Notes: generated by a model not told the origin, from the sequence alone. Counted from the stretch's first letter, positions 2 to 64,000 are shown. The stretch is 64,000 bases of DNA from an uncultured Actinomycetota bacterium (GCA_963716955.1 CAVQUY010000005.1:214011-278010); one strand, 5' to 3'. Numbers and translations: made by a program.

Positions 2-181
2 GAGCTGACCACCACCGAGACCGAGATCCTCCGGGCCTACGACACCCTGCGCGGGCTCGTCGCGTCCGAGGACCTCGCGCCCTGCGTCGCCTCCGGCGTC
101 CGCGCCGCCCTCGCGCACCTCGGGGTCGTCGTCACCGACCTCGGCCTGCGCTACGAGCACCTCCTCGACGACGGAGTCTGA
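2..181 (+). CDS. 3' end of an upstream gene (C-terminal 59 aa, ...LRYEHLLDDGV*), function not recognised
   Basis: Open frame runs from the window edge to TGA at 179-181; ATG of the next gene is at 184, so the two are tightly coupled. Confidence 0.4.
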   Translation, partial: ELTTTETEILRAYDTLRGLVASEDLAPCVASGVRAALAHLGVVVTDLGLRYEHLLDDGV

Positions 182-183
182 CG

Positions 184-2482
184 ATGCCGCCCCAGAAGAT
201 CGCCGCGATCGGCGCCGGCCCCGGGGGCCTGTTCACCGCGATCCTGGCGAAGCGCTCCGACCCCGAGCGCGAGATCACCGTCTACGAGCGCAACGCCGCG
301 GACGACACGTTCGGCTTCGGCGTGGTGTTCTCCGAGGAGACGCTGCAGAACATCGCCGACGCGGACCCGGTGTCGATCGACCGCATCCAGGCCGAGTTCC
401 GGCACTGGAGCGCGATCGACGTCGACTTCCTCGGCACGGTCGAACGCTCCGACGGGCACGCCTTCGCCGCGCTGGAGCGCAAGCGCCTGCTGCAGATCCT
501 CGGGGAGCGCGCGGTCGAGCTCGGCGTCGACGTCCGCTACTGCACCGAGGCGCCCCCGCTGGCGGAACTGCGGGCGACCCACGACGTCGTCCTGGCCGCC
601 GACGGCGTCAACAGCCGCACCCGCGAGGCCCTGGCCGACCAGTTCGCACCGTCGCGCGAGGGCCGGACCGCGAAGTACGCGTGGTTCGCCACCGAGCGGC
701 CGTTCGACTGCTTCACGTTCCTCATCGTCGACACCCCGTACGGGCTGTTCTGGGCGCACATCTACCCCTTCGACGCCACGCGCTCCACGTTCATCGTCGA
801 GACCGACGAGGCGACCTGGCGGCGCGCGGGACTGGACGCGCACGCCGCCGTCGAGCGCCGGCCCGGCGAGAACGACGAGGCCTCGATGCGGTTCTGCGAG
901 CAGATCTTCGCCGAGCACCTCGACGGCCACCCGCTGATCGGCAACAACTCGGGCTGGCTGTCCTTCACGGTGATGCGCAACGAGCACTGGTCGGCGGGGA
1001 ACGTCGCGCTCGTCGGCGACGCCGCCCACACCGCCCACTTCTCCATCGGCTCGGGCACCAAGCTCGCCCTCGAGGACGCGATCGCGCTCGCCGGCGCCCT
1101 CGACCGCGAGGGCGACGTCGACGCCGCGCTCAAGGCCTACGCCGAGGAGCGCAAGCCGGTGGTCGCCTCGCTGCAGCGCTCGGCGCAGACCAGCCTGGAG
1201 TGGTTCGAGGGGCTGGCGCGCTACCGCCACCTCGCCCCCGAGCAGTTCGTCTTCCAGCTGCTCACCCGCTCCCAGCGGGTCACCTACGACAACCTGCAGC
1301 TCCGCGACGCGGACTACGTCGGGCGCCTCGACGCCTGGCTCGCCGGGCAGACGCGGGCGCAGGGCCTCGAGGTCGCCGACGGCACCCCGCCGATGTTCCA
1401 CCCGTTCCGGCTGCGCGGCCGGACGTTCCCGAACCGGATCGTCGTCTCCCCCATGGCGCAGTACTCGGCCGTCGACGGCGTCCCGGGCGACTGGCACCTC
1501 GTCCACCTGGGCTCCCGCGCCGTCGGCGGCGCGGGGCTGGTCATGACCGAGATGACCTGCGTGAGCCCGGAGGGCCGGATCACGCTCGGCTGCCCCGGGC
1601 TGTGGAACGACGAGCAGACGCAGGCGTGGCGGCGCGTCGTCGACTTCGTGCACCGCGAGACCCCGGCGCTCATCGGCATCCAGGTCGGGCACGCCGGGCG
1701 CAAGGGCTCGACGAAGGTCATGTGGGAGGGCATGGACGACCCGCTCCCCGACGACGAGGCCTGGGACGTCCTCGCGCCGTCCCCGATCCCCTACCGCTCG
1801 GACTCGCCGGTGCCGCGGGAGATGACGCGGGCCGACATCGACGGACGTCATCGCCGCCCACGTCGACACCGCGCGGCGTGCCGCGGACGCCGGGTTCGAC
1901 CTGCTCGAGCTGCACTACGCGCACGGCTACCTCGTCTCGTCGTTCCTCTCCCCGCTGTCGAACCGGCGGACCGACGCCTACGGCGGGTCGCTGGAGAACC
2001 GGGCCCGCCTCGGCCTGGAGATCCTCGACGCGGTGCGCGAGGTGTGGCCGGCGGACCGGCCGGTCAGCGTGCGGATCAGCGCCACCGACTGGGTCGAGGA
2101 CGGGGGCTTCTCGGGCGACGACGCCGTGGCGCTGGCGCGCCTGCTCGCCGCGCACGGCGCCGACGTCGTCGACGTCTCCACCGGCCAGACCTCCACCGAG
2201 GCCGCCCCGGCGTACGGGCGGCTCTACCAGACCCCGTTCGCCGACCGGATCCGCCAGGAGACCGGCATCCCGACGATCACCGTGGGCGCGGTCGCGTCGG
2301 TGGAGGACGCGAACACGATCATCGCGTCGGGGCGGGCCGACCTGTGCGCGATCGCCCGCCCGCACCTGGTCGACCCGTACTGGACCTGGAACGCCGCGCT
2401 CGACCAGGACTACCGCGGGCTGCCGGTGCCGAAGCAGTACCGCTCGGGTCTCTCGGCGCGGCGCCGGGAGCAGACCCCGTGA
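184..2482 (+). CDS. Bifunctional FAD-dependent aromatic hydroxylase (salicylate-hydroxylase fold) fused to Old Yellow Enzyme-type NADH:flavin oxidoreductase (salicylyl-CoA 5-hydroxylase/anthraniloyl-CoA monooxygenase-like). Apparent frameshift near 1845
   Basis: N-terminal part has GAGPGGL Rossmann motif and a DAAH..GSG FAD-monooxygenase motif. C-terminal part matches the OYE TIM barrel (HGAHGYL-like, ...GIPTITVGAV...). Translation switches frame at gacggacgtc (about 1845) and resumes in the ORF 2033..2482. Confidence 0.8.
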
Positions 2483-2491
2483 GGCACGAGG

Positions 2492-2871
2492 TCAGAGCAG
2501 CAGCACCTCGACCTCGGGATCGAGCCTGCGCAGCCGGCCGACGTCGCCGGTGATCGTGGGCCAGCCCCGAAGCCTGCTGATCACGACCGCATGGGCGGCT
2601 CCGACGTCGTAGGTGCCGGTGGCGAAGAGGAGTTCGCGCACGCGCATCCGTACTTGCCCGTCCGGATCGCGCCGGATGATCGTCGGACTGTCCAGGACTT
2701 CGTCGATCGCGTCCAGGAGCTCGGGGCGCAGGGATCGGACCTCGCTCACGGCGAGCTCGGGGACGAACAGCGGCGACGCTGTCGCATGAGCGATGTCATC
2801 CAGGCGCTTCCGGAGATGTCATCGACGACGAGGGCGTCGAACGACGAAGCGTCGAGGACGCGACCGATCAC
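2492..2871 (-). pseudogene. VapC-like PIN-domain toxin, split into two overlapping ORFs (2746..2871 N-terminal part, 2492..2749 C-terminal part) by a frameshift
   Basis: N-terminal fragment VIGRVLDASSFDALVVDD resembles the PIN start (vlDaSvl.alL). C-terminal fragment TYDVGAAHAVVISRLRGWPTITGDVGRL matches the PIN C-terminus (YDAaYvAlA..lgapLvT.D). The two ORFs overlap by 4 nt. Confidence 0.55.
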
Positions 2872-2872
2872 G

Positions 2873-3145
2873 TCAGCTCGCCGCGTCGTCGACCGCGTGG
2901 AGCCGCCGAACCTCGTCGTCGCCCGGCCACTCACGGCCGAAGAGCGCGTACGACTTCCGCGACTCCGCGAGGGTGGGAGCGCGACCGGCTCGCATCAACT
3001 TGCGCGCCATGATCGCTCGATGGCGTTCGTCATCACTCGCGCCGGGCAGCGCGAGCGGCGGGAGCTCGGCGGCGCTCGGCTGTTCCTGATCGATGTCCGG
3101 ACGGTAGCGCCGACCCCCGACAGCCAGGTCCCGTTCGACGCTCAC
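2873..3145 (-). CDS. Hypothetical 90-aa protein immediately upstream of the PIN gene; possible cognate antitoxin
   Basis: Its stop lies 1 nt before the GTG of the PIN ORF on the same strand, a typical toxin-antitoxin arrangement. No recognisable RHH/AbrB motif, so weak. Confidence 0.3.
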   Translation of the reverse strand: MSVERDLAVGGRRYRPDIDQEQPSAAELPPLALPGASDDERHRAIMARKLMRAGRAPTLAESRKSYALFGREWPGDDEVRRLHAVDDAAS

Positions 3146-4734
3146 CGTCGGCGCAGCAGAGCCCCGGCCACGAGGTGCCCGACGCGCCGCCGAGCCCCGG
3201 CCCGGGGTGGGTCGACGCGCCGAGGTGCCACAACCCGGGCACCGGGGTGCGGTGCCGTCCCGACGACGGCAGCGGCCGCCACGCGAAGTTCTGGTCCAGC
3301 TCCGCGGAGCCCGCGTACGGGTCGCCGCCGATCGCGTTGGCGTTGTGCGCGGTCAGGTCGGCCGGGGAGATGACGTCGGTCCCGACGACGAGCCCACGCA
3401 GGCCCGGAGCGTGCGCGGCCAACCGGTCGAGGACCCGCTCCGCATAGGCGGCGGCCAGCGTCGGCGTCCACTCCCCCGACCCGACGTCGAGCAGCCCCGC
3501 GGAGTCCCCCACCGGGCGCCCCGGCAGCTCCTGCAGCTGCAACCACAGCGTGGCGGCGCCGGCCGGGGCCCGGGACGGGTCGAGCACGTGCTGCTGCCCG
3601 ACGACGACCGTCGGGCGCCGCGGCAGCAGGCCCGCCCCGCCTCGGCGCAGGCGATGCCGGTGGACGACGACCCGTCGGAGAGGTGGACGAGCGGGACGTC
3701 GCGCAAGGCCGGGTCCCGCCAGGGCACCGGCCCGGAGAGCGCCACGTGGATCATCATCGCCGCTCGTCCGGGGCGGAGGCGGCGGCCTGCGCGGCGACCG
3801 CCGCCGGCACCGACCCGGCCGGGAGCAGCTCGCCGTACAACGCCCCCGGCGCGACCGACGCGAGGACGACGGAGGCCCGGACCGCGAACCGTCCGCCGGG
3901 CCCGTCGCCCTCCACCCCGACGGCCCGGCCGCCGCGCACGACGATCCGATCCACCGGTGTCCGGGCCGGACGTCGACGCCCCGCTCCGCGAGCAGGGCCC
4001 GCCACGCGTCGACGAAGCACGCCGCGCCCCCGACGACGACCGGAGCCCGGCGCCGTGCATCGTCGCCGCGAAGACCGGCACCATCGCCCCGCCGCTCGCC
4101 GCGTCCGGCGCGAGGCCGCGTGCAGCAACCACGGCGCCCACAGCCGGTCGGTCTCGGGTCCCTCGAACCGGGTGCGCAGCCAGGAGCGACCGCTGGTCAC
4201 CACGTCCCGGGCGTAGTCGCGCGCGCCGCGACGGCCCGCCGTGCGGACCAGCGACGCGAGCGGGCGCAGCACCGACGGCGACCACAACTCGGAGCCGAGC
4301 AGCGTGCCCAGGGCCCCGGTGTCGCGGGTGAAGTCCGCGACCATGGCCCGGTAGGCGTCGGCGTCGGCGGCCGAGCCGAACCGCTTCACCGTCTCCTCGA
4401 CGTCGCGGTGGGCGATCGTGGCCGTCCCGTCGTCGGACACGGTCGCGGTGAGCGGGCCTCGACCTCCCCCGTCGCTGCGCTCGCCCCGGTCGGTGTTCGC
4501 GTACTCCAGCCCGTGCCGGTGCAGATCGGCGCCCAGCTCGGCGTACGCCGGGCCGGTCACGAAGAGCGGGTGCCAGGAGGACCAGGTGTCGTGCACGTAC
4601 CCGGGCACCGTGCGCTCGGCGCTGCCGATGAACCCGCCGATGTCCGCCGCGGCGTCGAGCAGCACCACCGATCGGCCCGCCCCGGCGAGCCGGGCCGCGG
4701 CGACCATCCCGTTGATCCCCGCGCCGACGATCAG
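3033..4734 (-). CDS. NAD(P)/FAD-dependent oxidoreductase, phytoene-desaturase (CrtI)-like; at least 2 apparent frameshifts; start codon ambiguous
   Basis: N-terminus ...IVGAGINGMVAAARLAGAGRSVVLLDAAADIGG (Rossmann). C-terminus ...GGDPYAGSAELDQNF.. is typical of the CrtI family. Three reading frames are needed to cover it (ORFs 3754..4707 and 3033..3587). It begins directly after the stop of the TPP gene. Confidence 0.65.
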
Positions 4735-50442: not shown

Positions 50443-52093
50443 GTGACCTATCCCTCCGGCGACGCCGAGCGCGCCGACGCCGTCGTGGTCGGCGCCGGGC
50501 ACAACGGGCTCGTCGCGGCCAACCTGCTCGCCGACGCCGGCTGGCGGGTGCTCGTGCTCGACGCCGGCCACTGGCCCGGCGGCGCCACCCGCAGCGCCGA
50601 GCTCGCCGCCCCGGGCTGGCGCACCGATCTCGGCAGCGCGTTCTACCCGCTCGGCGCCGCGTCCCCGGTGCTGCGCGGGCTCGGCCTCGACGCGTACGGC
50701 CTGCGCTGGCGCCACGCCCCGCAGCCGCTGGCGCACGTCCTGCCCGACGACCGCGGCGCCGTCATCTCCCGCGACCTCGATACGACCGCAGCGTCGGTCG
50801 ACCGGTTCGCCCCGGGCGACGGCGACGCGTGGCGCCGCCTCGCCGCGCAGTGGCAGGAGCTGCGCGAGCCGCTGCTGGGCGCCCTGCTCGCGCCGTTCCC
50901 GCCGGTGCGCGGCGCCGTCGGCCTGCTCCGCGCGACGGGCACCCCCGACCTGCTGCGCCTCGTCCGCCGCCTCGTGCTCCCCGTGCTGCGCTTCGGGGAG
51001 GAGGAGTTCGACGGCGAGGGCGCGCGGGTCCTCGTGGCCGGCAACGCGATGCACGCCGACGTCCCGCCCACCGGCGCCGGCAGCACCGCGTTCGGCTGGC
51101 TCCTCGCCATGCTCGCCCAGGACGTCGGCTTCCCCGTGCCGGAGGGCGGGTCCGGCGCGCTCAGCGATGCGCTCGTCGCCCGGCTCACCGCCCGCGGCGG
51201 CCGGGTCGACAGCGACCGACCGGTGGCCCGGGTGCTCGTCGAGGGCGGGCGCGCCGTCGGGGTGGTGGACACCGCGGGCGGGACGGTGCGGGCCGAGCAC
51301 GCCGTGCTCGCCGACGTCGCGGCCCCGATCCTCTACCGCGAGCTCGTCGGCGATGGAGCACCTTCCATGGCGGATGCGCGCCGACCTGGACCGCTTCCAG
51401 TGGGACCACGCCGTGCTCAAGGTCGACTGGGCGCTCTCGGAGCCCGTGCCGTGGACCGCGCCCGAGGCCCACGGGGCGGGCGCGGTGCACGTCGGCGCGG
51501 ACACCCGCGGCCTCGTCGACCTCGGCGCCGACCTCGCCGCGGGGCGGGTCCCGGAGACGCCCTTCCTGATCCTCGGCCAGCTGACCACCGCCGACCCGAC
51601 GCGCTCGCCGCGCGGCACCGAGTCGCTGTGGGCCTACACCCGCGTCCCGCACGACGCCCTGCGTGGTCCCGACGAGGTCGCCGCGCACGTCGCGCGGATG
51701 GAGGCCGTGCTCGAGCGGCACGCCCCGGGGTTCCGCGACCTCGTCGTCGGCCGTGCGGTCGCCGACCCGGACACGCTGCAGCGCCAGGACCCGAGCCTCG
51801 TCCGCGGTGCCCTGATGGGCGGCACGGCGAACCTGCACCAGCAGCTCGTGTTCCGGCCCACGCCCGGGCTCGGCCGCCCCGACACCCCGATCGACCGGCT
51901 CTTCCTCGCCGGCGCGTCCGCCCACCCCGGCGGCGCGGTGCACGGCGGCCCGGGGGCGGCCGCCGCCCGCGCCGCCCGGGCCCGGTCCGGGCGGCTCGGC
52001 CCGGCCTACGCCGCGCTGATCCGGGCCGGGCACCGGGCCGTGCACGGACGCCCCGAGCGCGTTCCCGACCCCGACGGCACCGTCCTCGAGTAG
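50443..52093 (+). CDS. NAD(P)/FAD-dependent oxidoreductase (phytoene-desaturase family); frameshift near 51350
   Basis: AVVVGAGHNGLVAANLLADAGWRVLVLDAG (Rossmann); the C-terminal domain is in ORF 51167..52093. Confidence 0.7.
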
Positions 52094-52114
52094 CACCCGA
52101 CCCCGCCCGCACTC

Positions 52115-52175
52115 GGCAATTCGATCACGGAAATCTGCACATCCGACGTGTGCAGATTTCCGTGATCAGATTGCC
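52115..52175. repeat. 27-bp inverted repeat (19-bp perfect core, 7-nt spacer) in an AT-richer island between convergent genes
   Basis: ggcaattcgatcacggaaatctgcaca tccgacg tgtgcagatttccgtgatcagattgcc; core arms 52123-52141 / 52149-52167 (plus or minus 1). Confidence 0.8.
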
Positions 52176-52295
52176 TAGTGCGCGGACCGCACGGTGCTGT
52201 CCAGGACGGGACACCGGCGGCCGGTGAGCGGGTCCGACGCTTCACGAGACCTCCGCGGCCGGGGAGCTCGACCGGCGCTCGGCATGATCGACTGC

Positions 52296-52628
52296 CTAGC
52301 GGGTGGACCGCGGAGGGCATCCCCGGTCGCGGCTGCAGGCCGTGAGGGCCTCGAGCAGCGGCGCCAGGCGGTGGCCCTCCGCGGAGAGCGAGTACTCGGT
52401 GCGCGGCGGGCGGGAGTCGAGCACCCGCCGCTCGAGGAGCCCGGCGGACTCGAGGTCGGCCAGGCGCGCCGCCAGCGTGGCCGGCGGCACCTGGCCGAGC
52501 GCCTGCTCGAACTCGGAGAACCGGGCCGCACCGAGGTGCGCGGCGTAGAGCACCGAGAGCGACCAGCGTCGCTCCAGCAGTGCCGTCAGCGCACGCACCT
52601 CGGGCGGTACCGGCTCCCGCGAGCACAT
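52296..52628 (-). CDS. HxlR-family winged-helix transcriptional regulator
   Basis: ...ALLERRWSLSVLYAAHLGAARFSEFEQALGQVPPATLAARLADLESAGLLERR matches the HxlR core. Confidence 0.8.
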   Translation of the reverse strand: MCSREPVPPEVRALTALLERRWSLSVLYAAHLGAARFSEFEQALGQVPPATLAARLADLESAGLLERRVLDSRPPRTEYSLSAEGHRLAPLLEALTACSRDRGCPPRSTR

Positions 52629-52629
52629 C

Positions 52630-54935
52630 TCAGGCGGCCACCTCGAGGCCCGGAGCCGGCTGGGCCACCGGCTCGAGGGCCACGTCGAGGACCTCGTTGA
52701 TGGTCATCGACGGGTGGAACTCCAGCTGACCGGCGACGTCCGCGGGGACGTCGTCGAGGTCGGCGCGGTTGCGCTCCGGGACGATGATCTGCGTCAGGCC
52801 CGCCGCGTGCGCGGCCAGCACCTTCTGCTTCACCCCGCCGATCGGGAGCACCCGGCCCTGCAGCGTCAGCTCACCGGTCATCGCGACGGTGTGCCGCACC
52901 GGTCGCCCGGTCAGCAGCGACACCAGGGCGGTGGCCATGGTGACGCCCGCCGACGGCCCGTCCTTCGGGATCGCGCCCGCGGGGACGTGCACGTGGAACG
53001 AGCGTCCCGCGAACGCGTCCTCGGCGATGCCCAGGTCCGCGGCGTGCGAGCGCACCCACGACAGGGCGATCCGGGCCGACTCCTTCATGACGTCGCCGAG
53101 CTGGCCGGTGAGGATCAGGCCCTCGTCGCCGGTCATGGCGGCCGCCTCGATGAACAGGACGTCGCCGCCCGCGCCGGTCACGGCCATGCCGGTCGCGACG
53201 CCGGGCACCGCGGTCCGCTCGACGGCCTCGACGAAGACCCGCTGCCGGCCGAGGTGGCGGCGGACCACGTCGGTGTCGACGACGACCGGCCCGGTGCCGG
53301 TGGCCACCCCCGTCGCGATCTTGCGGGTCAGCTTGCCGAGCGCGCGGTCGAGCTGCCGGACGCCGGACTCGCGGGTGTACTCCGACACCACGAGGCGCAG
53401 CGCCGACTCGTCGGCCGTCACGTCCTCGGGCGTCAGGCCGGCGCTCGTGATCTGGCGCGGCAGCAGGTGGTCCCGCGCGATGGCGACCTTCTCCTCGACG
53501 GTGTAGCCGTCGAAGGAGATGACCTCCATGCGGTCGAGCAGCGGGCCCGGGATCGGGTCGACCTGGTTGGCGGTCGCCAGGAAGACGACCTGCGAGAGGT
53601 CGATCTCGACGTCGAGGTAGTGGTCGCGGAACGCGTGGTTCTGCGCCGGGTCCAGGACCTCGAGCAGCGCGGCGGACGGGTCGCCGCGCCAGTCGGCGCC
53701 GACCTTGTCCACCTCGTCGAGCAGGATCACCGGGTTCATCGTGCCCGCGTCGCGCAGGGCGCGCACCAGGCGCCCGGGCAGGGCGCCGACGTAGGTCCGG
53801 CGGTGACCGCGGATCTCGGCCTCGTCACGGATGCCGCCGAGCGACATCCGCACGAACTCGCGGCCCATCGCGCGGGCCACCGACTCGCCGATCGAGGTCT
53901 TGCCGGTGCCGGGCGGCCCGACCAGGGTCAGGATCGTCCCGGCCCGGCGGTCACCCTCGACGCCCCGGTCGCGGCGCAGCTTGCGCACGGCCAGGTACTC
54001 GACGATGCGGTCCTTCACGTCCTCGAGGCCGGTGTGGTCGGCGTCGAGCACGGTGCGGGCCGCGGCCGGGTCGAGCTGCTCGTCGGAGACCTTCGCCCAC
54101 GGCAGGGCGAGCAGCCAGTCGAGGTAGGTCCGGATCATCGAGGACTCGCCGGACTGCTCACCGGCGCGCTCCAGGCGGGCGAGCTCGCGCTCGGCCTGCT
54201 CGCGCACGTGGTCGGGCATGCCGGCCTCGGCGATCTTCGCGCGGTAGTCGTCGCCGCGCGCCGGCGTCGTCGGAGCCCTCGCCCAGTTCCTTGCGGATGG
54301 ACTCCAGCTGGCGACGCAGCACGTACTCGCGCTGCGCCTTCGCCGCGCCGGACTCCACGTCCTCGCGCAGCGACTTGCGCACCTGCAGCTCCGCGAGCCG
54401 CTCGCGCTGCAGGCGCAGCGCCAGCTCGAGGCGCTCGCGCACGTCGAGCGTCTCCAGCAGGGACACCTTGTCGGCGTACGGACGTCTCGGGCGCCCAGCC
54501 GGCGGTGTCGGCCAGGGCGCCGGGCTCGTCGATCGCGCGCAGGAGCCCGGTCGCGCGCCCGTCGTCGCCGCGCAGCTCGAGGACCTCCTCGACCACGGCG
54601 CGGTAGGTGGTCTCCAGCTCGCGGATCCGTCCGTCGCGCTCGACGGCGTCCGGGTGGGCGGTCACCTCGACGCGCAACCCGGCGCCGTCGGCGCTGCCCG
54701 TCCCGGCCTTCCCGCGGTGCACCCCGGTGAGCTGCACGGCGGTCACGCCGTTCGGCATCCGGGTCCGGCCCGTGACGTCGGCGACGGTGCCGACCGCGGC
54801 GAAGTGCCCGTCGTGGCGCGGGACGAGCAGGACCTGCTCGCCCTTCTCGGCGCCGACCTCGGCGGCCGGCACCACGAGGCTCATCCCGGGGAAGATCACG
54901 TTGTCGTCGACGGGGACCAGCAACAGCTCGGTCAT
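52630..54935 (-). CDS. lon: ATP-dependent Lon protease (LonA: LON N-domain, AAA+, S16 protease); 2 apparent frameshifts near 54230-54500
   Basis: Walker [10 protein letters not shown]; sensor ...VDKVG...; S16 active site [18 protein letters not shown] (Ser) and K further on. The N-terminal LON domain is in ORF 54135..54935. Confidence 0.8.
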
Positions 54936-54947
54936 CTCGTCACCCCA

Positions 54948-55818
54948 TCACTCGTACTTGGTAGCTGCTACAAGTGTTGAAGCGGCTTCAGTATTCCGCC
55001 ACCGCTCCCGCAGGGCGAGGGCGTCGTGCGGGGCGTGGCCCTCGGCGTCGTTGTCGAAGTAGACGAGGACCTCGCGGCCGCTCGGCCGCCCACGCGGCGG
55101 CCTTCGCGGCCCAGGCCCTGCAGCGCGGCCGCGTCGTAGGCGCTGCGGTAGAGCTCGTCGTGGCCGTGGAGGCGGACGTAGACGAGGTCGGTGGTGACGT
55201 CGTCGAAGCAGGGGAATGCCCGGCGCCGTCGGAGACGACGAGGGCCACGTCGTGGGCGCGCAGGAGCGCGACGAGGTCGGGGGTGGCGAAGCTCGGGTGC
55301 CGCGGCTCGAGGGCGTGGCGGAGCGGCCGGTCCTCGTCGGTGACCGTGCAGGGGTCGGGGACGCGGTCGGTGTGGGCGGCGGCGAGGGCCGCGGCCTCCC
55401 CCGTGGTGCGCGGGAGCAGGCGCAGGAACCCCTCGATCCGCTCGGGGTCCCAGCCCAGGTTCGGCGGGAGCTGCCAGAGGACCGGGCCGAGCTTCGGGCC
55501 CGAGCGCGAGCAGGCCGGAGGCGAGGAAGCGGCCGAGGGGCTCGGCGACGTCGCGGAGCTTGCGCATGTGCGTGAGGTAGCGGCTGCCCTTCACCGCGAA
55601 CCGGAAGTCCTCCGGGGTGGCCGCCGCCCAGGTGCGGAACGACGAGGCCCGCTGCAGCGAGTAGAAGGTGCCGTTGATCTCGGCGGTGTCCAGCCGACCG
55701 GCGAGGTACTCGAGGCGGCGGCGCCGGGCCAGCCCGTCCGGGTAGAAGGTCCCCGCCCAGTGGTCGTAGGTCCAGCCCGAGGTGCCCACGCGCACCCGGC
55801 CCCGCCCCGTCCCGGCCA
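54948..55818 (-). CDS. DUF72-family protein; multiple frameshifts
   Basis: RVGTSGWTYDHWAGTFYP...EINGTFY...FAVKGSRYLTH.. N-terminal; the ...VYFDNDAEGHAPHDALALRERW C-terminus is found in another frame. Confidence 0.6.
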
Positions 55819-55871
55819 TCGCGGTGATCGTAGGCCGGGCCGTGCGGCCGGGCGGATGGCAGGATCGTCGG

Positions 55872-57570
55872 GTGGTCGCACTGGTCACCGGCGTGGTCGC
55901 CCTGGTCATCGTGACCGCGGTGGTCCGCGCCGGCGCACGCCGGACGGGGGTCCCCGACCCCATCGCGCTGCTCCTCGTGGGCATCGGGCTCTCGTGGGTG
56001 CCCGGGCTGCCGGAGTACCGCATCAACCCCGACCTCGTCCTCGTCGTCGTCCTCCCGGTGCTGCTCTACTGCGCCGGCTTCGCGGCGTCGCTCCCGGCCT
56101 TCCGCATCCACCTGCGCCCGATCCTGCTGCTCTCGGTGGGCCTGACGATCGTGTCCGCGCTGGCCGTCGGCGGGGTCGCGGCCGCGCTCGTGCCCGGGCT
56201 CGGGTTCGCCGCGGCGTGCGCCCTCGGCGCGGTGGTGGCCCCGCCCGACGCCGTCGCCGCCACCGCGATCGCCCGCACCATCCGGCTCCCCCGGCGGGTG
56301 GTGGCGCTGCTCGAGGGCGAGAGCCTGTTCAACGACGCGGCCGCGCTCACCGTGCTCGCCGTCGCGGTGGGTGCCGTGCAGGGCGACACCCTCTCCTTCC
56401 CCCAGGCGGTGGGCCGGTTCCTGCTGGTCAGCCTCGGCGGCCTCGTCGCGGGCGCGGTGTCGGCGGTCGTCATCGGGTGGGTCCGCCAGCGCGTGACCCA
56501 CCCCTACACCGACGTCGTGGTGTTCCTCGTCGCGCCGTTCGTGTCCTACCTGCCCGCCGAGGAGCTGGGCGCCTCGGGCCTGGTCGCGGTGGTCGTCGCC
56601 GGGCTCTACCTGGGCCACCGCGCGACGACGATCATGGAACCCGCGGCCCGGGTCGTCACCGGGGCGGTCCGCACCGCGGTGTCGTGGCTGCTCGAGGGGA
56701 TGGTCTTCCTCGTCGTCGGGCTGCAGCTGCGGCGCGTGCTCGCCGGGATCGGCGGGATGGCCCCGACCGCGGTGGCGGCGGTGACGCTGGCCGTCGTCGG
56801 GACGCTCATCGGGGTCCGGTTCGCCTGGGTCGTGCTCGCCGAGCAGGGCCTCGCGACGGCCCTGCGGCGCCGGCACGCGTCCTGGACGGAGACGACGCTG
56901 ACGGCGTGGTCGGGCATGCGCGGGGCGGTGTCCCTCGCGGCCGTGCTCACGCTGCCCGTCGCCCTGCCCGACGGCCGGGCGTTCCCGCAGCGCGACCTGA
57001 TCGTCTTCGTGACCTTCGTCGTCATCCTCGCGACGCTGCTCGGCCAGGGCGTGACCCTGCCCGCCCTCGCCCGCCGCCTGCCGGGAGCGCGCGGGGAGGA
57101 GGTCGAGGAGGCGCAGGAGGAGGCCCGCGCCCGGCGGATGGCCGCGGACGCCGCCCTGGAGTGCCTCGAGCAGCTCGAGCGCGAGGACCCCGGGCGGCGT
57201 GCCGTCGTCGACCAGCTCCGGCGCCGCGTGCAGAACCGCATCGACGCGGCGACCGAGGCCCAGGTCGAGGCCGATTCGCCGGGCCGACGCCGGCGGGCCG
57301 TCGGACGCCGTCGAGGCGCCCGACGACCAGGCCGCGGGGCGCGGCGGGACGACCGCCTCCGTCGCGGCGCCGGCGGGGCACGACGACGAGCAGGACGAGC
57401 AGCCGGCGGAGTCGACCCGCGAGTCCTACCGCCGCTACGGCCAGGCGATGCTCGTGGCCGAGCGGTCCCGCCTGCTGGCCCTGCGCAACGCGGGCACGCT
57501 CGGCGAGGACGCGTTCGTCCGCATCCAGCACGAGCTCGACCTGGAGCAGGCCGCGCTGGTGGTGCGCTGA
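55872..57570 (+). CDS. Na+/H+ antiporter (CPA1/NhaP type) with a C-terminal cytoplasmic regulatory domain; frameshift near 57290
   Basis: 12-13 TM helices with ...LLEGESLFNDAAALTVLAV... (conserved CPA1 FND motif); the soluble tail continues in ORF 57199..57570. Confidence 0.75.
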
Positions 57571-57691
57571 GCCCGCCCGGGTCGGGGGTTTCCGCGACGA
57601 GCAGCACGGACACCCGCCCCTCGGACGGGCCCACCACCGGCGCCCGCCGCCGTCCCCGCCCGGGACGTGCCCCGTGCCCGCAGGGGGGACC

Positions 57692-58681
57692 GTGACCTCC
57701 GCCGCCTCGCCGCGACCGGCCGGCGACCCGCTCGCCCGGGCCCTCGCCGCCCTGGCGCTCGACCCCTCCCCCCGCGAGCACCTGCTCGACAACTGGCGGG
57801 TGCTCGCCCGGACCGCGGAGCACGACCTCGACGCCGCCCGCCTCGCCGAGGCCCACCTCGACGCGGCGACGATCACCGCCGAGCTCGGCGGGGCCCGCGT
57901 CGAACCCGGGTCGCTGTGGGGCGTGTGGGCCGCGGGCAGCGCGGACACCGCCGTCCACGCGACCCACGACGGCGAGGGCTGGTCGCTGTCCGGGCGCCGG
58001 CCCTGGTGCTCCGGATCCGACCGGTGCACCCACGCGCTCGTCACCGCCGACGCCCCCGACGGCGGGCGCCTCTTCGCCGTCGACCTCGCCGGCCCGGCCT
58101 CCCGCCCCGACGGCGATCCCTGGCGGGGCGTGGGGATGCGCGACAGCGGCACCGCCACGGTCCGCTTCACCGCGGCCCCCGCCGTGCCGGTCGGCGGACC
58201 GGGCGCGTACCTCGAGCGCCCGGGCTTCTGGCACGGCGCCGTCGGGGTCGCCGCGGCGTGGTTCGGCGGGGCGGTCGGGGCCGCGGCCCCGCTGCGCGAG
58301 CGCCTGGCGCAGGGCCGCGGCGACGACCACGACGCCGCCCACCTCGGCCGGGTGGACACCGCGCTCGCGTCGGCGGGCGCGGTCCTGCGCGCGGCCGCCG
58401 TCGGGATCGCCGACCCGGACGCCCTCACCGAGCCCGTGCCGCGGGCCCGCCGCCGCGCGCTGCGCGCCCGCGCCGCCGTGGAGGAGGCCGTCGAGACGGT
58501 CCTGCGCAGCACCGGCCGCGCCACCGGGCCCCGGCCGCTGGCCCGGGACGCGGACCACGCCCGCCACGTCGCCGACCTCGAGGTCTACGTGCGCCAGAGC
58601 CACGCCGAGCGGGACCTCGCGACCCTCGGCCGGCTCGCGGCCGAGCTCGACGGTGACCGCGCCGACGGGGTGCGCCTGTGA
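57692..58681 (+). CDS. Acyl-CoA-dehydrogenase-like protein (short, about 330 aa); first gene of a 4-gene coupled operon
   Basis: ...GEGWSLSGRRPWCSGSDRCTHALV.. (ACAD middle beta-barrel, 'W.SG' motif) and helical C-terminal domain; stop overlaps the next GTG. Confidence 0.6.
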   Translation: MTSAASPRPAGDPLARALAALALDPSPREHLLDNWRVLARTAEHDLDAARLAEAHLDAATITAELGGARVEPGSLWGVWAAGSADTAVHATHDGEGWSLSGRRPWCSGSDRCTHALVTADAPDGGRLFAVDLAGPASRPDGDPWRGVGMRDSGTATVRFTAAPAVPVGGPGAYLERPGFWHGAVGVAAAWFGGAVGAAAPLRERLAQGRGDDHDAAHLGRVDTALASAGAVLRAAAVGIADPDALTEPVPRARRRALRARAAVEEAVETVLRSTGRATGPRPLARDADHARHVADLEVYVRQSHAERDLATLGRLAAELDGDRADGVRL

Positions 58682-59448
58682 CGGCACCGCCGCGCGACCT
58701 GACCGGGCCCGGCACCGCCGAGGCGCGCTGGCGCTCCTCGGGGCTGCTCGCGGCGCTCCCCCGGGTCGCTCCCGGCGGATCTCCGGCCGGCCGGGCGCGT
58801 CGTCGTCGTCGCCCCGCATCCCGACGACGAGACCCTCGGCGCCGGCGGGACGCTCGCCGCGTGGGCGGCCGACGGCGGCGTCGACGTCACCGTCGTCGCG
58901 GTGACCGACGGGGAGGCCAGCCACCCCGGCAGCCCCACCGTGGGTCCCGCGGAGCTCGCCGGTCGCCGGCACGAGGAACGGCGCCGGGCCCTGGCCGCCC
59001 TCGGCCTGCCCGACGCCACGGTGGTCCGCGCCGGGCTCCCCGACGGCGGCGTCGCGGCGCACCGCGGTGCGCTCGCCGACCTGCTCGACGAGCTCCTGCG
59101 CCCCGGCGACACGCTGCTCGCGCCGGTGCCCGGCGACGGGCACCCCGACCACGACGCCGTCGCCGAGGTCGCCGACGACGCCGCCGCCCGCCACGGGCTG
59201 GCCCGGTGGCACTACGCGGTCTGGCTGTGGCACTGGGCGGAGCCCGACGATCGCGGTCGGTGCCCCGCGAGGGCGCGGTCGCGGTGCTGCTGCCCGGCGA
59301 CGCGCAGCAGGCCAAGCGGGACGCGGTCGCGTGCTTCACCACCCAGGTCGAGCCGCTCTCGGCCGACCCGCGCGACGCGGCGATCCTGCCGCCGGAGGTG
59401 CTGGCCCGGTTGCTGCGGGAGGTCGAGGTGCTGTGGAGGACCCGGTGA
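58678..59448 (+). CDS. PIG-L (LmbE/MshB-like) N-acetylglucosaminyl deacetylase family protein; about 3 frameshifts
   Basis: ...VVVAPHPDDETLGAGGTLA... (PIG-L AHPDDE motif) and ...PGDGHPDHDAVAEV.. (HxDH zinc site) recovered across frames; GTGA coupling on both sides. Confidence 0.7.
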   Translation: MTAPPRDLTGPGTAEARWRSSGLLAALPRVAPGGSPAGRARRRRRPASRRRDPRRRRDARRVGGRRRRRRHRRRGDRRGGQPPRQPHRGSRGARRSPARGTAPGPGRPRPARRHGGPRRAPRRRRRGAPRCARRPARRAPAPRRHAARAGARRRAPRPRRRRRGRRRRRRPPRAGPVALRGLAVALGGARRSRSVPREGAVAVLLPGDAQQAKRDAVACFTTQVEPLSADPRDAAILPPEVLARLLREVEVLWRTR

Positions 59449-60072
59449 GCACGGCGGGCGCGCGGTCGCTCGACACGGCGCACTTCGACCGCCTCTGGCG
59501 CGACGAGGACGACCCGTGGGGGCTGGAGTCGTCCTGGTACGAGGACCGCAAGCGCGCCGTGGTCCTCGCCGCGCTGCCCGACCCGCGGTACCGCCGCGCG
59601 TTCGAGCCGGGGTGCGCGGGCGGGGCGCTCTCCGTGCTGCTCGCCGACCGCTGCGACGAGCTCGTCGCCACCGACGTCGCGCAGGAGGCGGTGGACCGGG
59701 CCCGCGGCCGGCTGCGCGGGCAGCGTGGACGTCCGGGTCGAGCGGGCCGCGGTCCCCCACGAGGTCCCGGACGGGCCGTTCGACCTCGTCGTCGTCTCCG
59801 AGCTCGCCTACTACTTCGGCGCGGACGACCGGGCCGCGCTGTGGGAGGCCGTCCGGGACCGGTTGGCGCCCGGCGGCACGCTGCTGGCCGTGCACTGGAT
59901 CCGGGAGGCGCCGGAGTACCCCGTCGGCGGGGACGCGGTCCACGACGAGCTCGCCCGGCTCGACGGGCTCGCGCGGATCGCGGAGCACCGCGAGGCCGAC
60001 TTCCGCCTCGACGTGCTCACCCGGACCCCGCCCGAGGCCCGCTCGGTCGCCCAGCGGGTGGGGCTGCGGTGA
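59445..60072 (+). CDS. NodS-like class I SAM-dependent methyltransferase
   Basis: ...FDRLWRDEDDPWGLESSWYEDRKRAV... (NodS-type N-terminus) ...EPGCAGGALSVLLADRCDELVATDV (motif I) ...LVVVSELAYY... ...LAPGGTLLAVHW (motif III). Confidence 0.75.
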
Positions 60073-60818
60073 CCCGACCACTGCCGGTGCCGGACCTGCC
60101 CGACCAGCCGGTCCTGGGCGTCGTCGTCCCCGCCCACGACGAGCAGGACCTCCTCGGCGGGTGCCTGGACGCGCTGGCCCGCGCCGCGCGGTGGGTGTCC
60201 GACCGCGCCGTGGTCCGCACCCTCGTCGTCCTCGACGCGTGCCGGGACCGGACCGCCGACGTCGCCGCCGCGCACGGCGTCGAGACCCTCGTGACCGCCG
60301 ACCACTGCGTCGGCCGGGCCCGCGACGCCGGGTGCGCCGCGCTGCTCGACGGCCCGGGCGCGCGGCCGGGCTGGCTCGCCACCACCGACGCCGACTCGCG
60401 GGTGCCGCCCGACTGGCTGCTCGCCCAGCTCGAGGCGTGGACCCGGCCCGCCGACGCCCGGGTGGGCGCGGTGTACGTCGAGGACTGGAGCGAGCAGTCC
60501 CCGGCCGCCGCGCACTGGTTCTCCGACGTCTACGACACCGCGGGCGACCCGCATCCCCACGTCCACGGGGCGAACCTCGGCGTGCGCGCGGACGCCTACC
60601 GGGCGTGCGGCGGCTTCCACGGCCTCCCGACCGGCGAGGACGTCGCGCTCGTCGACGCCCTGGACGCGGGCGGGTTCGCGGTGCACCGCACCCGGCGCAG
60701 CCCGGTACTGACCAGCGGGCGCCGGATCGCGCGGGCCGACGGCGGCTTCGCCGGGCGGCTGGTCGACCTCGGGTCGCGCGCCCCCGACCTGGACGCCGGG
60801 ACCCAGCGCGCCGGCTGA
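60069..60818 (+). CDS. Family-2 glycosyltransferase (GT-A fold)
   Basis: ...VLGVVVPAHDEQDLLGGCLDAL.., ..LVVLDACRDRT.. (DxD-like), ..WLATTDADSRVPPDWL.. are typical of GT2. Confidence 0.8.
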   Translation: MTRPLPVPDLPDQPVLGVVVPAHDEQDLLGGCLDALARAARWVSDRAVVRTLVVLDACRDRTADVAAAHGVETLVTADHCVGRARDAGCAALLDGPGARPGWLATTDADSRVPPDWLLAQLEAWTRPADARVGAVYVEDWSEQSPAAAHWFSDVYDTAGDPHPHVHGANLGVRADAYRACGGFHGLPTGEDVALVDALDAGGFAVHRTRRSPVLTSGRRIARADGGFAGRLVDLGSRAPDLDAGTQRAG

Positions 60819-60845
60819 CCAGGACCGACGCCCGTGGTCCTCGGC

Positions 60846-61889
60846 CTAGCCGCGCCGGCGTGCGGCCCGGGTGACCATCTCGGCGAACAGCTCCTGCAGC
60901 GTGATGCCGCCCTGCGCGGCCATCACCACGACCACGCTGGTGCGGGCGAACGAGCAGTAGAGCCCCGCCTCGAGGAACCAGGGCCGGCCGTCGGGGTCGA
61001 CGCGGAAGTCGAACAGCCCGTAGTCGCGGCAGCCCAGCGCGACGTAGCAGCGCCGCGCCGCCTCCCAGACGGCCGGCGTCACCGGGTCGTCGACGTCGAC
61101 CGGCCACGCCTTGCCGTCGCCCTTCGCGACCAGCCCGAGCCCGCCGTCGTCGCCGCGGGCGAGCTTGTCGGCGGGCGTGCGGATCGGCGCCGCCTCGGCG
61201 TCGACCGGGTACTCCTCGAGCGGCAGGCACACCAGCTCGGTGCCGCGCTCGACCACCCCGCACCGCACCTCGCGCCCGGCCGGGACGTAGGTCTCCACGA
61301 GGGCGGCGCCCGCGTGCTCGAAGGCGGCCGACAGTGCGGGCCCGAGCTCCTCGGGCCGGCGGACGAGGGTGACACCCGAGCGAGTTGTCGGAGTCCGCCG
61401 GCTTGACGACCACCGGGAGCCCGACGTCGGGCGGCGTCGTCGCCGGGGCGCACGACGACGCCGGCCGGGACGTCGACGCCGCCGTGCGCGACGATCGCGC
61501 GGGCCCGCGGCTTGTCCGCGCCGACGGCCATGACGTCGGGGGCGTTCCCGACGACCGGGACGCCGAGCACGTCGAACAGGGCGCGGTAGGACGTCATGCC
61601 GGGCAGGCAGAACATCTGGGGGACGACGACGTCGGGCGCGAGCTCCCGGAGGTGCGCGATCGCGTCGCCGATCTCCAGCGCCGGGGTCGCGGCGAGCACG
61701 GCGTCGTCGAGCGCCGTGCCGTCGGCCGCTGCCGGGAAGCGCCAGCACCCGTCGGGCGAGACGTGGGCGACGGCGAACTCGTAGCGGGTCGGGTCGGCGA
61801 CCGCGTCGAGGGCGTCGCGGGCGTAGAGCCGGGAGAGCTCGGCGAGGAACTCGCTGGTCGGGGACCCGACGAGGTGCAGGACGCGCATG
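60846..61889 (-). CDS. ATP-grasp enzyme, D-alanine-D-alanine-ligase-like; frameshift near 61380
   Basis: N-terminal Rossmann-like MRVLHLVGSP...; central ...PVVVKPADSDNSLGVTLV...; C-terminal ...GCRDYGLFDFRVDPDGRPWFLEAGLYCSF (Ddl C-domain Mg site). Confidence 0.7.
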   Translation of the reverse strand, partial: HARPAPRRVPDQRVPRRALPALRPRRPRRGRRPDPLRVRRRPRLARRVLALPGSGRRHGARRRRARRDPGAGDRRRDRAPPGARARRRRPPDVLPARHDVLPRPVRRARRPGRRERPRRHGRRRGQAAGPRDRRARRRRRPGRRRRAPRRRRRPTSGSRWSSSRRTPTTRSGVTLVRRPEELGPALSAAFEHAGAALVETYVPAGREVRCGVVERGTELVCLPLEEYPVDAEAAPIRTPADKLARGDDGGLGLVAKGDGKAWPVDVDDPVTPAVWEAARRCYVALGCRDYGLFDFRVDPDGRPWFLEAGLYCSFARTSVVVVMAAQGGITLQELFAEMVTRAARRRG

Positions 61890-61890
61890 A

Positions 61891-63264
61891 TCACGGAGTC
61901 TGCACCGCCCTCAGTCCCCGGCCGGCTCGACGAGCTTGCCGATGTTGAAGTCGATCTTGACCCAGTCGCGGCCCTCGCGCAGGTTCCGCCACAGCAGCGC
62001 CGGGATCTGCAGGTGGTGCTCCAGCAGGAACGGCAGCGGGTCGTCGAGGTCGAAGATCGCGTCCCGGCCGCGCAGGACCACCCGCAGCCGCTCGGGGACG
62101 CTCGTCGGGCGGCGAGAGCATCCGCCAGAGCTCGTGGTAGAGCCAGTACGTGGGCCGGACGGTCGGGGTCGGCGTCAGGGTCGGGCGCCCGGCGCCGGGG
62201 TCCGCGGGCTCGAGGTACGCCCGGGCCAGCTCGGCGTAGCGGTCGTGGAACATCGTGATCGCGGAGTGGGTGCGCGGGTTGCACTCCAGGGCGACCAGCG
62301 CGCCGTCGTCGCCGACGATGAAGTCGAACGAGTACTGGCCGGTGAGCTTGCCCTCGGCGACGAACGTCTCCACCCACCGCTCGATCTCCGGCACGTCGAC
62401 CGGGGCGTAGTTCACCTGGAACGCCGAGGACTCGCAGCAGCAGTAGACGACCAGGCGCCCGTCGCGGGCGGTGCCGTGCGTGCAGTACTCGCGGCCGGGC
62501 ACGAACGCCTGGAGGATCCACGGGGTCCCGGGCGAGATCGGCTTCGACCGGGCGAGCGCGGCGGTCTCCTCCGCGGGTCGGGCGCGGGAGCGCGGTGAGG
62601 TCGAGCCGGTTGACCGGGTCGTACGGGATGCTCTTGAGCACGTAGGGCGGCCCGTCGGCGGGGAAGGCGAACGCCTCGACCTCGGCGGCGGACGTGACGC
62701 GGTGGGTGTCGGGCACCGGCAGGCCGGCCGCCCGCGCGGCCGCCGCGAACGCGGCCTTGTCGTCGACGGTGCCGATCGCCTCGGCGTCGCCGTGCAGCAC
62801 CTCGCAGCACTGCTCGAGCACCGGCTTGGCCAGCGCGTCGTACCAGCTCGACGCCGGGCTGCACACCGGCACGTAGACGTCGACGCCCTCGCGGCGCACC
62901 ACGTCGACCAGGGCGTCGACGTAGCCGGGGTCGTCGGGGGCCGGGACGACGTGGAAGGTGTCCACGGCGCGGGAGAAGCGGTGCCCGGTGAGGCGGTAGC
63001 GCGCCGACTCGACGAGCACGACCCGGTGCCCCGCCGCGTGGAACGCCCGCGCCAGCGCGAGCGCCTTCGTCATCTTCCCGCCGCTGACCAGCACCGTCCG
63101 GGGCCGTTCCGGGGTCTCCCGGGCGGGGGCGCCGACGACGGCGCCGCGGGCGAGCGCGGCCGCGGTGACGGCGAGGTTCGCGGGCAGGGCGGCGAGCAGC
63201 AGCGCCTGGGCGCCGAGGGTGCGGGCGGCGCCGACCCAGCGCCTCCCACCGAACGGGGTCACGC
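61891..63264 (-). CDS. ATP-grasp domain protein (carboxylate-amine ligase-like); frameshift near 62580; start uncertain
   Basis: ...ILQAFVPGREYCTHGTARDGRLVVYCCCESSAFQVNYAPVD... and ...FDFIVGDDGALVALECNPR (ATP-grasp B-loop/Mg site); N-terminal ...TVLVSGGKMTKALALARAFHAAGHRV. Confidence 0.65.
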
Positions 63265-64000
63265 CACACCCGGGTACGTCGCGACCATCCCCCGGTGCAT
63301 CACCCGGTCCCCGACGACGCCGGAGTGGTCGGCCTTGTGCAGGACCGCGCCGTTGTCCCAGATGACGACGTCGCCGGGGCGCCAGGCGTGGCGGTAGACG
63401 TTGTCGTCGCGGGTGGAGTGCTCGAGCAGCGCGGTGATCGTGGCCCCGTCGTCGTCCAGCCCGCTGATCGCCGCGCACCGGGCGGGCGCGTCGAGGTACA
63501 GCGCGACCCGCCCCGACACCGGGTGGGGGCGCAGGACGGGGTGGTCGGCGGCGGCCTCGTCGTCGGGACCCAGCTCCAGGCCGGTGACGACGTGGCGCAG
63601 GGTCCGTCCCTCGACCCGCGTCCGCAGGTCGGCGGGCAGCGTGTCGTGGGCGCGGAACTGGTTGCTGAACAGCGTCTGGCCGCCCCGGCTCGGGATCTCC
63701 ACGGCACGCAGGGCGGTGTAGGCCGGCGGCCGCGCCACGTAGCCGGTGTCGATGTGGAAGTTGCTGCGCGGCGGGGTCGTGCGCCCGACGTTGGAGACGA
63801 AGTTCAGCTCGGGGTGGCCCTCCAGCGGCGTCTCCCCCGTGGTGAACGCCAGCTCCCCGATGCTGCGCAGGAAGGCGGTGAACGCCGTCGTCGTCGGCGT
63901 CGTCCTGGTCGCGGAGCACGACGACGCCGTGCTCGGCCAGCAGGTCGCGCAGCGCGGTGACGTCCTCGGGGGCCAGCGGCCCGACGTCGAGGCCGGTGAC
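63259..64000 (-). CDS. TauD/TfdA-family Fe(II)/2-oxoglutarate-dependent dioxygenase, 5'-partial (runs off the window); frameshift near 63900
   Basis: ...HIDTGYVARPPAYTALRAVEIPSRGGQTLFSN (HxD facial-triad region) ...VIWDNGAVLHKA (distal His). The N-terminal ...LRDLLAEHGVVVLRDQD is at the window edge. Confidence 0.7.
   Translation of the reverse strand, partial: SPASTSGRWPPRTSPRCATCWPSTASSCSATRTTPTTTAFTAFLRSIGELAFTTGETPLEGHPELNFVSNVGRTTPPRSNFHIDTGYVARPPAYTALRAVEIPSRGGQTLFSNQFRAHDTLPADLRTRVEGRTLRHVVTGLELGPDDEAAADHPVLRPHPVSGRVALYLDAPARCAAISGLDDDGATITALLEHSTRDDNVYRHAWRPGDVVIWDNGAVLHKADHSGVVGDRVMHRGMVATYPGVA

Follow-up and report, generated by a model that had tools for sequence, protein, structure and literature searches.

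A four-gene enzyme module conserved across phyla and the predicted tail of a mycosporine-like amino acid operon, probable chance neighbours in an uncultured Actinomycetota bacterium

Do seven genes that meet tail to tail at the end of a stretch of actinobacterial DNA serve one pathway, or are they merely neighbours? The stretch, a window of 64,000 nt from an uncultured Actinomycetota bacterium (GCA_963716955.1, CAVQUY010000005.1:214011-278010), carries between positions 57,692 and 64,000 a plus-strand set encoding an acyl-CoA dehydrogenase (ACAD)-like protein, a PIG-L-family deacetylase, a NodS-like methyltransferase and a family 2 glycosyltransferase (GT2). Facing it is a minus-strand set encoding a TauD-type dioxygenase and two ATP-grasp ligases, the second of which resembles D-Ala-D-Ala ligase (Ddl). 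An original prediction, made from this sequence, joined all seven genes in a single pathway to an N-modified aminosugar conjugate. Here we argue that the locus is likely to hold two unrelated gene sets placed tail to tail, namely the tail of a mycosporine-like amino acid (MAA) operon and an autonomous four-gene module, that their adjacency is a recent and lineage-restricted accident, and that the frameshifts in the region are insertions introduced in assembly.

The evidence that carries this reading comes from the neighbourhoods of related genes. We collected 80 species-representative loci, each with 8 kb of flank, and searched them by tblastn with the seven window proteins together with MysA, MysB and a HAD-family protein of MAA clusters. 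A mys gene was found within 8 kb of the module in one locus (L006, from an 88%-identical relative). Neighbourhood co-conservation of the two operons, on which the original prediction had staked its case, is thus essentially absent, and with 79 of the 80 module loci devoid of a nearby mys gene a seven-gene single pathway is not supported. Other Actinomycetospora loci (L007-L012, L019, L028 and L062) have the module without adjoining mys genes, while the minus-strand set is intact without an adjoining module in Actinomycetospora sp. TBRC 11914 (L005), in a Nakamurella (L086) and in a Streptomyces (L087). The relative L004 (84% protein identity) has the two sets side by side. L001, a metagenomic contig with 97.3% DNA identity to window positions 52275-60842, is far closer, yet has no mys genes at this site: its homology to the window ends at 60842, 24 nt past the GT2 stop and inside the convergent spacer. 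With the two sets separated, no effort need go into a spurious seven-gene pathway.

By family models and synteny, the minus-strand trio is predicted to form the distal half of a sunscreen (MAA) operon of the actinobacterial kind, a cluster type that has already been described. In MAA biosynthesis MysA and MysB produce 4-deoxygadusol. Attachment of glycine by MysC yields mycosporine-glycine, and a second amino acid, added by MysD, gives shinorine-type or porphyra-334-type MAAs. The middle gene of the trio encodes an ATP-grasp protein of MysC type, which passes the NCBIfam model NF005315 (PRK06849) with 412.9 bits against a cut-off of 406 and has 2822 homologues, mostly annotated 'ATP-grasp enzyme', with Actinomycetospora leading. 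A PDB sequence search gave no meaningful solved relative for it, and a literature search on PRK06849 returned nothing relevant. In L004, L005, L086 and L087 this gene always lies between the TauD and Ddl-like genes, downstream of genes for a dehydroquinate synthase-like protein (DHQS) and an O-methyltransferase (OMT), and is directly followed by the Ddl-like gene. In the window, too, the Ddl-like gene begins 22 nt downstream of the MysC-type stop, where a mys cluster would have its second ligase, whether a Ddl-like MysD or an NRPS-like MysE. The Ddl-like protein matches PF07478 with an E-value of 2e-21, and its best PDB matches are Ddl enzymes (E 5e-17). A true Ddl or Van ligase was ruled out, as the protein scores 87 bits against a cut-off of 243 and falls far under all Ddl/Van equivalog cut-offs.

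The dioxygenase gene is translationally coupled to the MysC-type gene through a GTGA stop/start overlap. Its product has solved relatives in PlaO1, TauD, AtsK and ScoE, the last of which likewise oxidises an N-carboxymethyl group, and it keeps the iron ligands HxD...H, visible in the translation as HID and the distal H in WDNGAVLHKA. With this fold, these ligands and a place in a predicted mys cluster, it has the features of a MysI-type dioxygenase. A tblastn search with this protein against a plasmid collection, seeking the Nostoc MysI, retrieved only generic TauD relatives at 33-36% identity.

MysA and MysB are absent from the whole window, which ends inside the TauD gene, and lie directly upstream in L004, L005, L086 and L087. 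L004 matches the window in collinear fashion as far as position 64000, at 86% DNA identity, and continues with the first 25 codons of TauD, then OMT, DHQS and HAD genes, and L005, L086 and L087 each carry a six-gene operon in the order HAD-DHQ_synthase (~400 aa)-Methyltransf_3-TauD-ATP-grasp-Dala_Dala_lig_C. The full operon would therefore be expected in the order HAD, MysA (a DHQS-like sedoheptulose-7-phosphate cyclase), MysB (the OMT), TauD, MysC and MysD, with HAD, MysA and MysB placed just past coordinate 64000. It matches the mysA-mysB-mysC-mysD logic of MAA biosynthesis laid out in a review (PMC10666671), and HAD and TauD/TfdA genes are conserved members of MAA clusters in Actinomycetota according to the GATOR-GC preprint (PMC11888242). 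The preprint also refers to unpublished work in which a Rhodococcus fascians operon containing HAD and TauD was expressed and yielded shinorine, palythine and palythine-serine. A cyanobacterial enzyme of the TauD/TfdA family, MysI, has been proposed to form palythines by removing the glycine substituent (PMC10510106). By the same route, the TauD-type enzyme here may oxidatively strip the glycine carboxymethyl group from the MAA. The Actinomycetospora-like lineage would then be another likely palythine-type MAA producer, and the trio adds examples of the HAD/TauD-containing actinobacterial architecture, in which the roles of TauD and HAD are putative.

The plus-strand set, in turn, is a self-contained, translationally coupled module of four genes, kept across phyla. 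Its ACAD-like protein has 2840 homologues at E<=1e-5, and when one genome per GTDB species was scanned by pattern, at least 505 genomes encoded a relative of it. The four genes are co-directional within 4 kb in 68 of the 80 loci, and several of the incomplete loci are truncated by the end of a contig. They occur in five orders: GT2-ACAD-PIGL-MT (40 loci), ACAD-PIGL-MT-GT2 (15), PIGL-GT2-ACAD-MT (9), PIGL-MT-GT2-ACAD (3) and MT-GT2-ACAD-PIGL (1), where MT is the methyltransferase gene. That the set has stayed together while its order was rearranged points to functional coupling of the genes. Among its carriers are Actinomycetospora, many species of Mycobacterium and Mycolicibacterium, Nocardia, Rhodococcus, Gordonia, Antrihabitans and Actinoplanes, as well as Streptomyces rimosus, which has the gene order of the window, and the myxobacterium Cystobacter fuscus. 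Outside Actinomycetota the module is present in Betaproteobacteria and Myxococcota, and a search seeded from Cupriavidus brought in another 3492 homologues, from Burkholderiales, Myxococcota and Actinomycetota. A conserved fifth gene was sought around the module, and only lineage-specific synteny was found (in mycobacteria, genes for SDR, ECH and HAD proteins and for sigma factors); a literature search for the four-gene combination found no description of it. The module is real, widespread and uncharacterised, though built from known enzyme families and not categorically new.

Some individual neighbourhoods deserve mention in their own right. On the Cupriavidus basilensis plasmid pRK1-2 (L088, 1961-8319) the PIG-L gene is on the opposite strand, and next to the module are genes for a DJ-1/PfpI-type protein, a large catalase and a four-helix-bundle protein of the PA2169 family. 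The Mycolicibacterium gadium module (L002) adjoins genes for an ECF-type sigma factor and a ribosome modulation factor. These neighbours hint at a possible association of the module with stress or stationary phase. In Cystobacter fuscus (L090, 4580-5212) the GT2 is of another type, with an N-terminal hydrophobic segment and 18% identity to the window GT2, so the glycosyltransferase partner of the myxobacterial module may have been replaced in that lineage.

What the module makes can be approached through its enzymes, for which we took as conserved those motifs kept in >=90% of ~70 orthologues. These include the zinc-site motifs HPDDE and DGHPDH of the PIG-L enzyme, the TDAD (DxD) and ED motifs of the GT2, and, in the methyltransferase, the S-adenosylmethionine (SAM)-binding motif EPGC..G and the NodS-like N-terminal DPW/WYE.RK. 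The methyltransferase belongs to PF05401 (NodS), scoring above a threshold of 24 bits, and its nearest solved relatives are PDB 4isc (E 7e-41) and NodS itself (3ofj, E 3e-10). A PDB search with the GT2 sequence alone gave no meaningful match, and its profile gave weak generic matches such as ArnC. Several established identities were tried and rejected. The PIG-L enzyme is not MshB or BshB: it misses the thiol-pathway equivalogs TIGR03445 (32 bits against a cut-off of 224), TIGR04001 (55 against 182) and TIGR04000 (46 against 195), its partner is a GT2, and the conserved module has no cysteine ligase. A true NodS was excluded by a score of 68 bits against the NF041650 cut-off of 300 and by the absence of NodA, NodB and NodC nearby. 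A role in defence was likewise rejected, the sole PADLOC match being a generic methyltransferase domain (mad2).

The ACAD-like protein matches the ACAD middle domain only, below threshold (28.5 against 33.3 bits), and has no match in NCBIfam. By eye, the invariant C-terminal stretch of the family, VYVRQSHAERD, has no Glu at the position of the YEG catalytic base. On these grounds a canonical acyl-CoA dehydrogenase was ruled out. A structural model of high confidence (pLDDT 91.5, pTM 0.91) has the ACAD fold with a shortened N-terminal helical domain. In a Foldseek search aimed at distinguishing dehydrogenase from monooxygenase chemistry, the model ranked the amino-sugar N-oxygenase KijD3 first, followed by MsuC, XiaF, DszC, MAB_4123, the nitrososynthase ORF36 and DnmZ, true ACADs being scattered among these matches. 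The sequence profile first matched ColB1, TdsC, ORF36 and DszC, and the family motif GTKPWCSG resembles GTKAFCSG of TdsC.

To our knowledge, characterised PIG-L enzymes all hydrolyse N-acyl-glucosaminyl amides, so that a GlcNAc-type intermediate is reasonable to expect. With the catalytic motifs of three enzymes conserved, the sequence of steps in the original prediction (hexosamine transfer, de-N-acetylation, methylation of the amine) stays the most reasonable reading. We put forward with low confidence a four-step mechanism, in which the GT2 would pass an N-acetylhexosamine to an acceptor, the PIG-L enzyme would take off the acetyl group, the NodS-like enzyme would methylate the freed amine, and the ACAD-fold flavoenzyme would oxidise the product, possibly at nitrogen, one option being N-oxygenation of an amino sugar, the reaction of KijD3 and the nitrososynthases. 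It is conceivable, if rather doubtful, that the module is a very widespread new pathway to a small glucosamine conjugate that carries an N-methyl group and has been oxidised by a flavoenzyme, such as an N-oxygenated aminosugar metabolite or a glycoconjugate that protects against stress. Were this so, ACAD-fold chemistry on a sugar amine would extend beyond the antibiotic deoxysugar pathways, and the pathway would span mycobacteria, Nocardia, Rhodococcus, Gordonia, Pseudonocardiaceae, Streptomyces, Burkholderiales and myxobacteria. Whatever its chemistry, this compact module is carried by hundreds of species, many non-tuberculous mycobacteria among them, and its product is probably a modified hexosamine conjugate.

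The reading frames of the locus are broken in several places, which raises the further question of whether its genes are intact. Breaks were mapped base by base against L001 for the plus strand and against L004 for the minus strand. Single-base insertions were located in the PIG-L gene (58776, 59251 and 59255), the methyltransferase gene (59724), the TauD gene (63887), the MysC-type gene (62572 and about 62116) and the Ddl-like gene (61438 and 61377). The statement that every gene is interrupted was overstated: five of the seven are affected, and the ACAD-like and GT2 genes are uninterrupted open reading frames (ORFs). In L001 the module genes are unbroken, encoding 329, 258, 212 and 249 aa (258 aa being the PIG-L orthologue). 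Across window positions 52275-60842 there are about twenty single-base differences from L001, every one of them an extra base in the window, and the GC content at third codon positions (GC3) is ~0.95-1.0 in the new frame past each break. Upstream, the Lon protease, DUF72 and Na+/H+ exchanger genes are broken likewise (examples are 54258, 54480, 55082, 55114, 55215, 55499 and 57278), and insertion-type assembly errors appear to be spread over the whole window. The frameshifts are assembly insertion errors, not biology, because the same kind of insertion is found window-wide, housekeeping genes included, and the genes of relatives are intact.

Could the frameshifts nonetheless be real, and the region a decaying, pseudogenised island? 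Nine frame-breaking single-base insertions in 6.3 kb would invite that view. We hold it to be highly unlikely, given that coding GC3 is maintained in the shifted frame after all breaks, that the changes are insertions without exception and of the type seen in Lon protease and other upstream housekeeping genes, that the translated pieces are still 84-100% identical to intact orthologues, and that L004, a related assembly of long-read style, has DHQS and OMT genes broken in a similar way. In favour of a link between the two sets stands their position: they lie side by side and converge in the window and in L004, and probably in L006 as well. The original prediction built on such a link: all seven genes would form one pathway, in which an aminosugar made by the GT2, PIG-L enzyme and methyltransferase receives (TauD-hydroxylated) amino acids from the ATP-grasp enzymes in an MshC/BshC-like manner, a scheme with a chemical analogy to mycothiol and bacillithiol. 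We give it next to no credence. The ligases are of the MAA types MysC and MysD, which attach amino acids to a cyclohexenone core and not to a sugar; ligation onto a deacetylated aminosugar is not supported. Intact TauD-ATP-grasp-Ddl sets sit behind DHQS-like and OMT genes, without the module, in three genera, and the 97%-identical relative has no minus-strand set at this site.

The same adjacency could instead mean that the module was recruited in this lineage to tailor an MAA, with glycosylation by the GT2 and N-methylation of the palythine amine by the NodS-like enzyme, as reported or proposed for cyanobacterial MysG and MysF. Cyanobacterial MAA pathways do include the methyltransferase MysF, clustered with the TauD-type MysI, and glycosyltransferases. 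This too is very unlikely: the module is a unit in hundreds of species without nearby mys genes, Proteobacteria and Myxococcota among them; MAA chemistry offers no substrate for a PIG-L or ACAD-fold enzyme; and MysG is a GT4, not a GT2. The genomes with adjacent sets are close relatives (84-100% protein identity) and therefore count as one evolutionary event. We accordingly favour two unrelated gene sets in accidental contact, against which several points should be set beyond the adjacency in three related genomes, which leaves a small probability of a functional link specific to this lineage. MysA and MysB lie outside the window, so that the MAA cluster is deduced from synteny; the MysC-, MysD- and MysI-type labels derive from family models and synteny; and the role of TauD in actinobacterial palythine formation goes back to the unpublished work cited in the preprint. 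On the side of the module, the GT2 donor, its acceptor and the product are predictions, and a Paraburkholderia locus has no adjacent PIG-L gene.

The layout of the locus is given in Table 1. At a G+C content of 75-82% across the region, ORFs are present in all six frames, and coding frames were therefore found by a GC3 frame plot together with six-frame translations, which gave four genes on the plus strand and three on the minus strand in convergent orientation. In its description of domains, translational coupling and convergent layout the original prediction was correct. The Pfam identities it named (PF02585, PF05401, PF00535, PF02668 and PF07478) hold in profile searches, and the GTGA start/stop overlaps it placed at 58678, 59445 and 60069 are present in the sequence. 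Of the two adjacent or overlapping junctions it described on the minus strand, that between TauD and the ATP-grasp gene does overlap, at 63262-63259 rather than 63264, whereas the ATP-grasp and Ddl-like genes do not overlap, the 22 nt lying between stop and ATG.

Table 1. Genes and spacer of the convergent locus, in window coordinates
Feature	Coordinates	Strand	Details
ACAD-fold flavoenzyme-like protein, 329 aa	57692-58681	+	Intact ORF; first gene of the four-gene module
PIG-L/LmbE-family zinc deacetylase	58678-59448	+	PF02585, 91 bits; frame broken by insertions
NodS-like class I SAM-dependent methyltransferase	59445-60072	+	PF05401, 52.8 bits; alternative GTG start 59433
Small soluble-type GT2 (GT-A) glycosyltransferase, 249 aa	60069-60818	+	PF00535, 47.1 bits; intact ORF; last gene of the module
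Convergent spacer, 27 nt	60819-60845		Between the gene sets; short GC hairpin (AGGACC...GGUCCU)
MysD-type D-Ala-D-Ala-ligase-like ATP-grasp protein	61888-60846	-	PF07478, 76.7 bits; predicted final gene of the MAA cluster
MysC-type ATP-grasp ligase	63262-61911	-	NCBIfam PRK06849 family; NF005315, 412.9 bits
TauD/TfdA-family Fe(II)/2-oxoglutarate dioxygenase	64000 (cut by window end)-63259	-	PF02668, 167.7 bits

About 25 N-terminal residues of TauD are encoded beyond the end of the window. At the other end of the locus, the upstream Na+/H+ exchanger gene is separated from the ACAD-like gene by 121 nt. Of the two GTG starts available to the methyltransferase, 59445 gives the GTGA overlap, while 59433, used in the gene call of L001, gives a 16-nt overlap with PIG-L. 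The hairpin in the spacer folds at -26.3 kcal/mol with a modest z of -2.0, and scans for canonical promoter and terminator consensus sequences found none in this 78% GC region. An exact-sequence look-up found no record identical to the ACAD-like or GT2 proteins of the window.

Beyond the shared segment, L001 differs from the window at both ends. From its position 13155 a Gpr1/Fun34/YaaH gene and RND-adaptor-like genes replace the mys cluster, marking the boundary of a variable region. At 93-4598 it has a Mrp-type multisubunit cation/proton antiporter operon of ~4.5 kb where the window (52093-52275) has only ~180 nt, a strain-level indel. In L004, between 7083 and 8844, the DHQS-like gene falls into two pieces and the gene call puts the OMT region on the wrong strand; frameshift errors like those of the window seem to be present there too.

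Set beside known systems, the minus-strand trio has the same families in the same order (TauD/TfdA, MysC, MysD) as the 3' end of the HAD-DHQS-OMT operon in actinobacterial MAA clusters such as that of Pseudonocardia alni (PMC11888242), differing in that only its last three genes fall within the window. Another cluster of this kind, amir_4256-4259, is found in Actinosynnema mirum (Miyamoto et al. 2014, as cited in PMC11888242). Among cyanobacterial enzymes, MysI of Nostoc sp. UHCC 0926 shares the Pfam family of the window TauD and is likewise an Fe(II)/2-oxoglutarate dioxygenase encoded inside an MAA cluster; it clusters with MysF and MysE, whereas the window TauD adjoins MysC. MysH of Nostoc linckia, which does the same job as MysI (PMC10510106), is also an Fe(II)/2-oxoglutarate dioxygenase of an MAA cluster, but of a different Pfam family, the phytanoyl-CoA dioxygenases.

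For the module, the comparison is with parts rather than with a whole. The closest solved relative of its methyltransferase, PDB 4isc, is a structural-genomics 'Methyltransferase' without assigned function. Its ACAD-like protein, at 313-329 aa, is shorter than the non-dehydrogenase ACAD-fold enzymes KijD3/ORF36/DnmZ, DszC/TdsC, MsuC and ColB1 (~390-440 aa) and shares 16-22% sequence identity with them, its flavin binding and chemistry being predicted. The NodC/NodB/NodS, MshA/MshB and BshA/BshB systems resemble the predicted logic of the module: a GlcNAc unit is handled by a glycosyltransferase and a de-N-acetylase, in some cases joined by an N-methyltransferase. The module deacetylase is of the PIG-L family, as are MshB and BshB, whereas NodB belongs to a different family (CE4); its glycosyltransferase is a soluble GT2, in contrast to the membrane-bound, processive NodC and to MshA and BshA, which are GT4 enzymes. 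Relative to the Nod and thiol pathways, the module dispenses with a cysteine ligase and adds an obligatory fourth partner, the ACAD-fold flavoenzyme.

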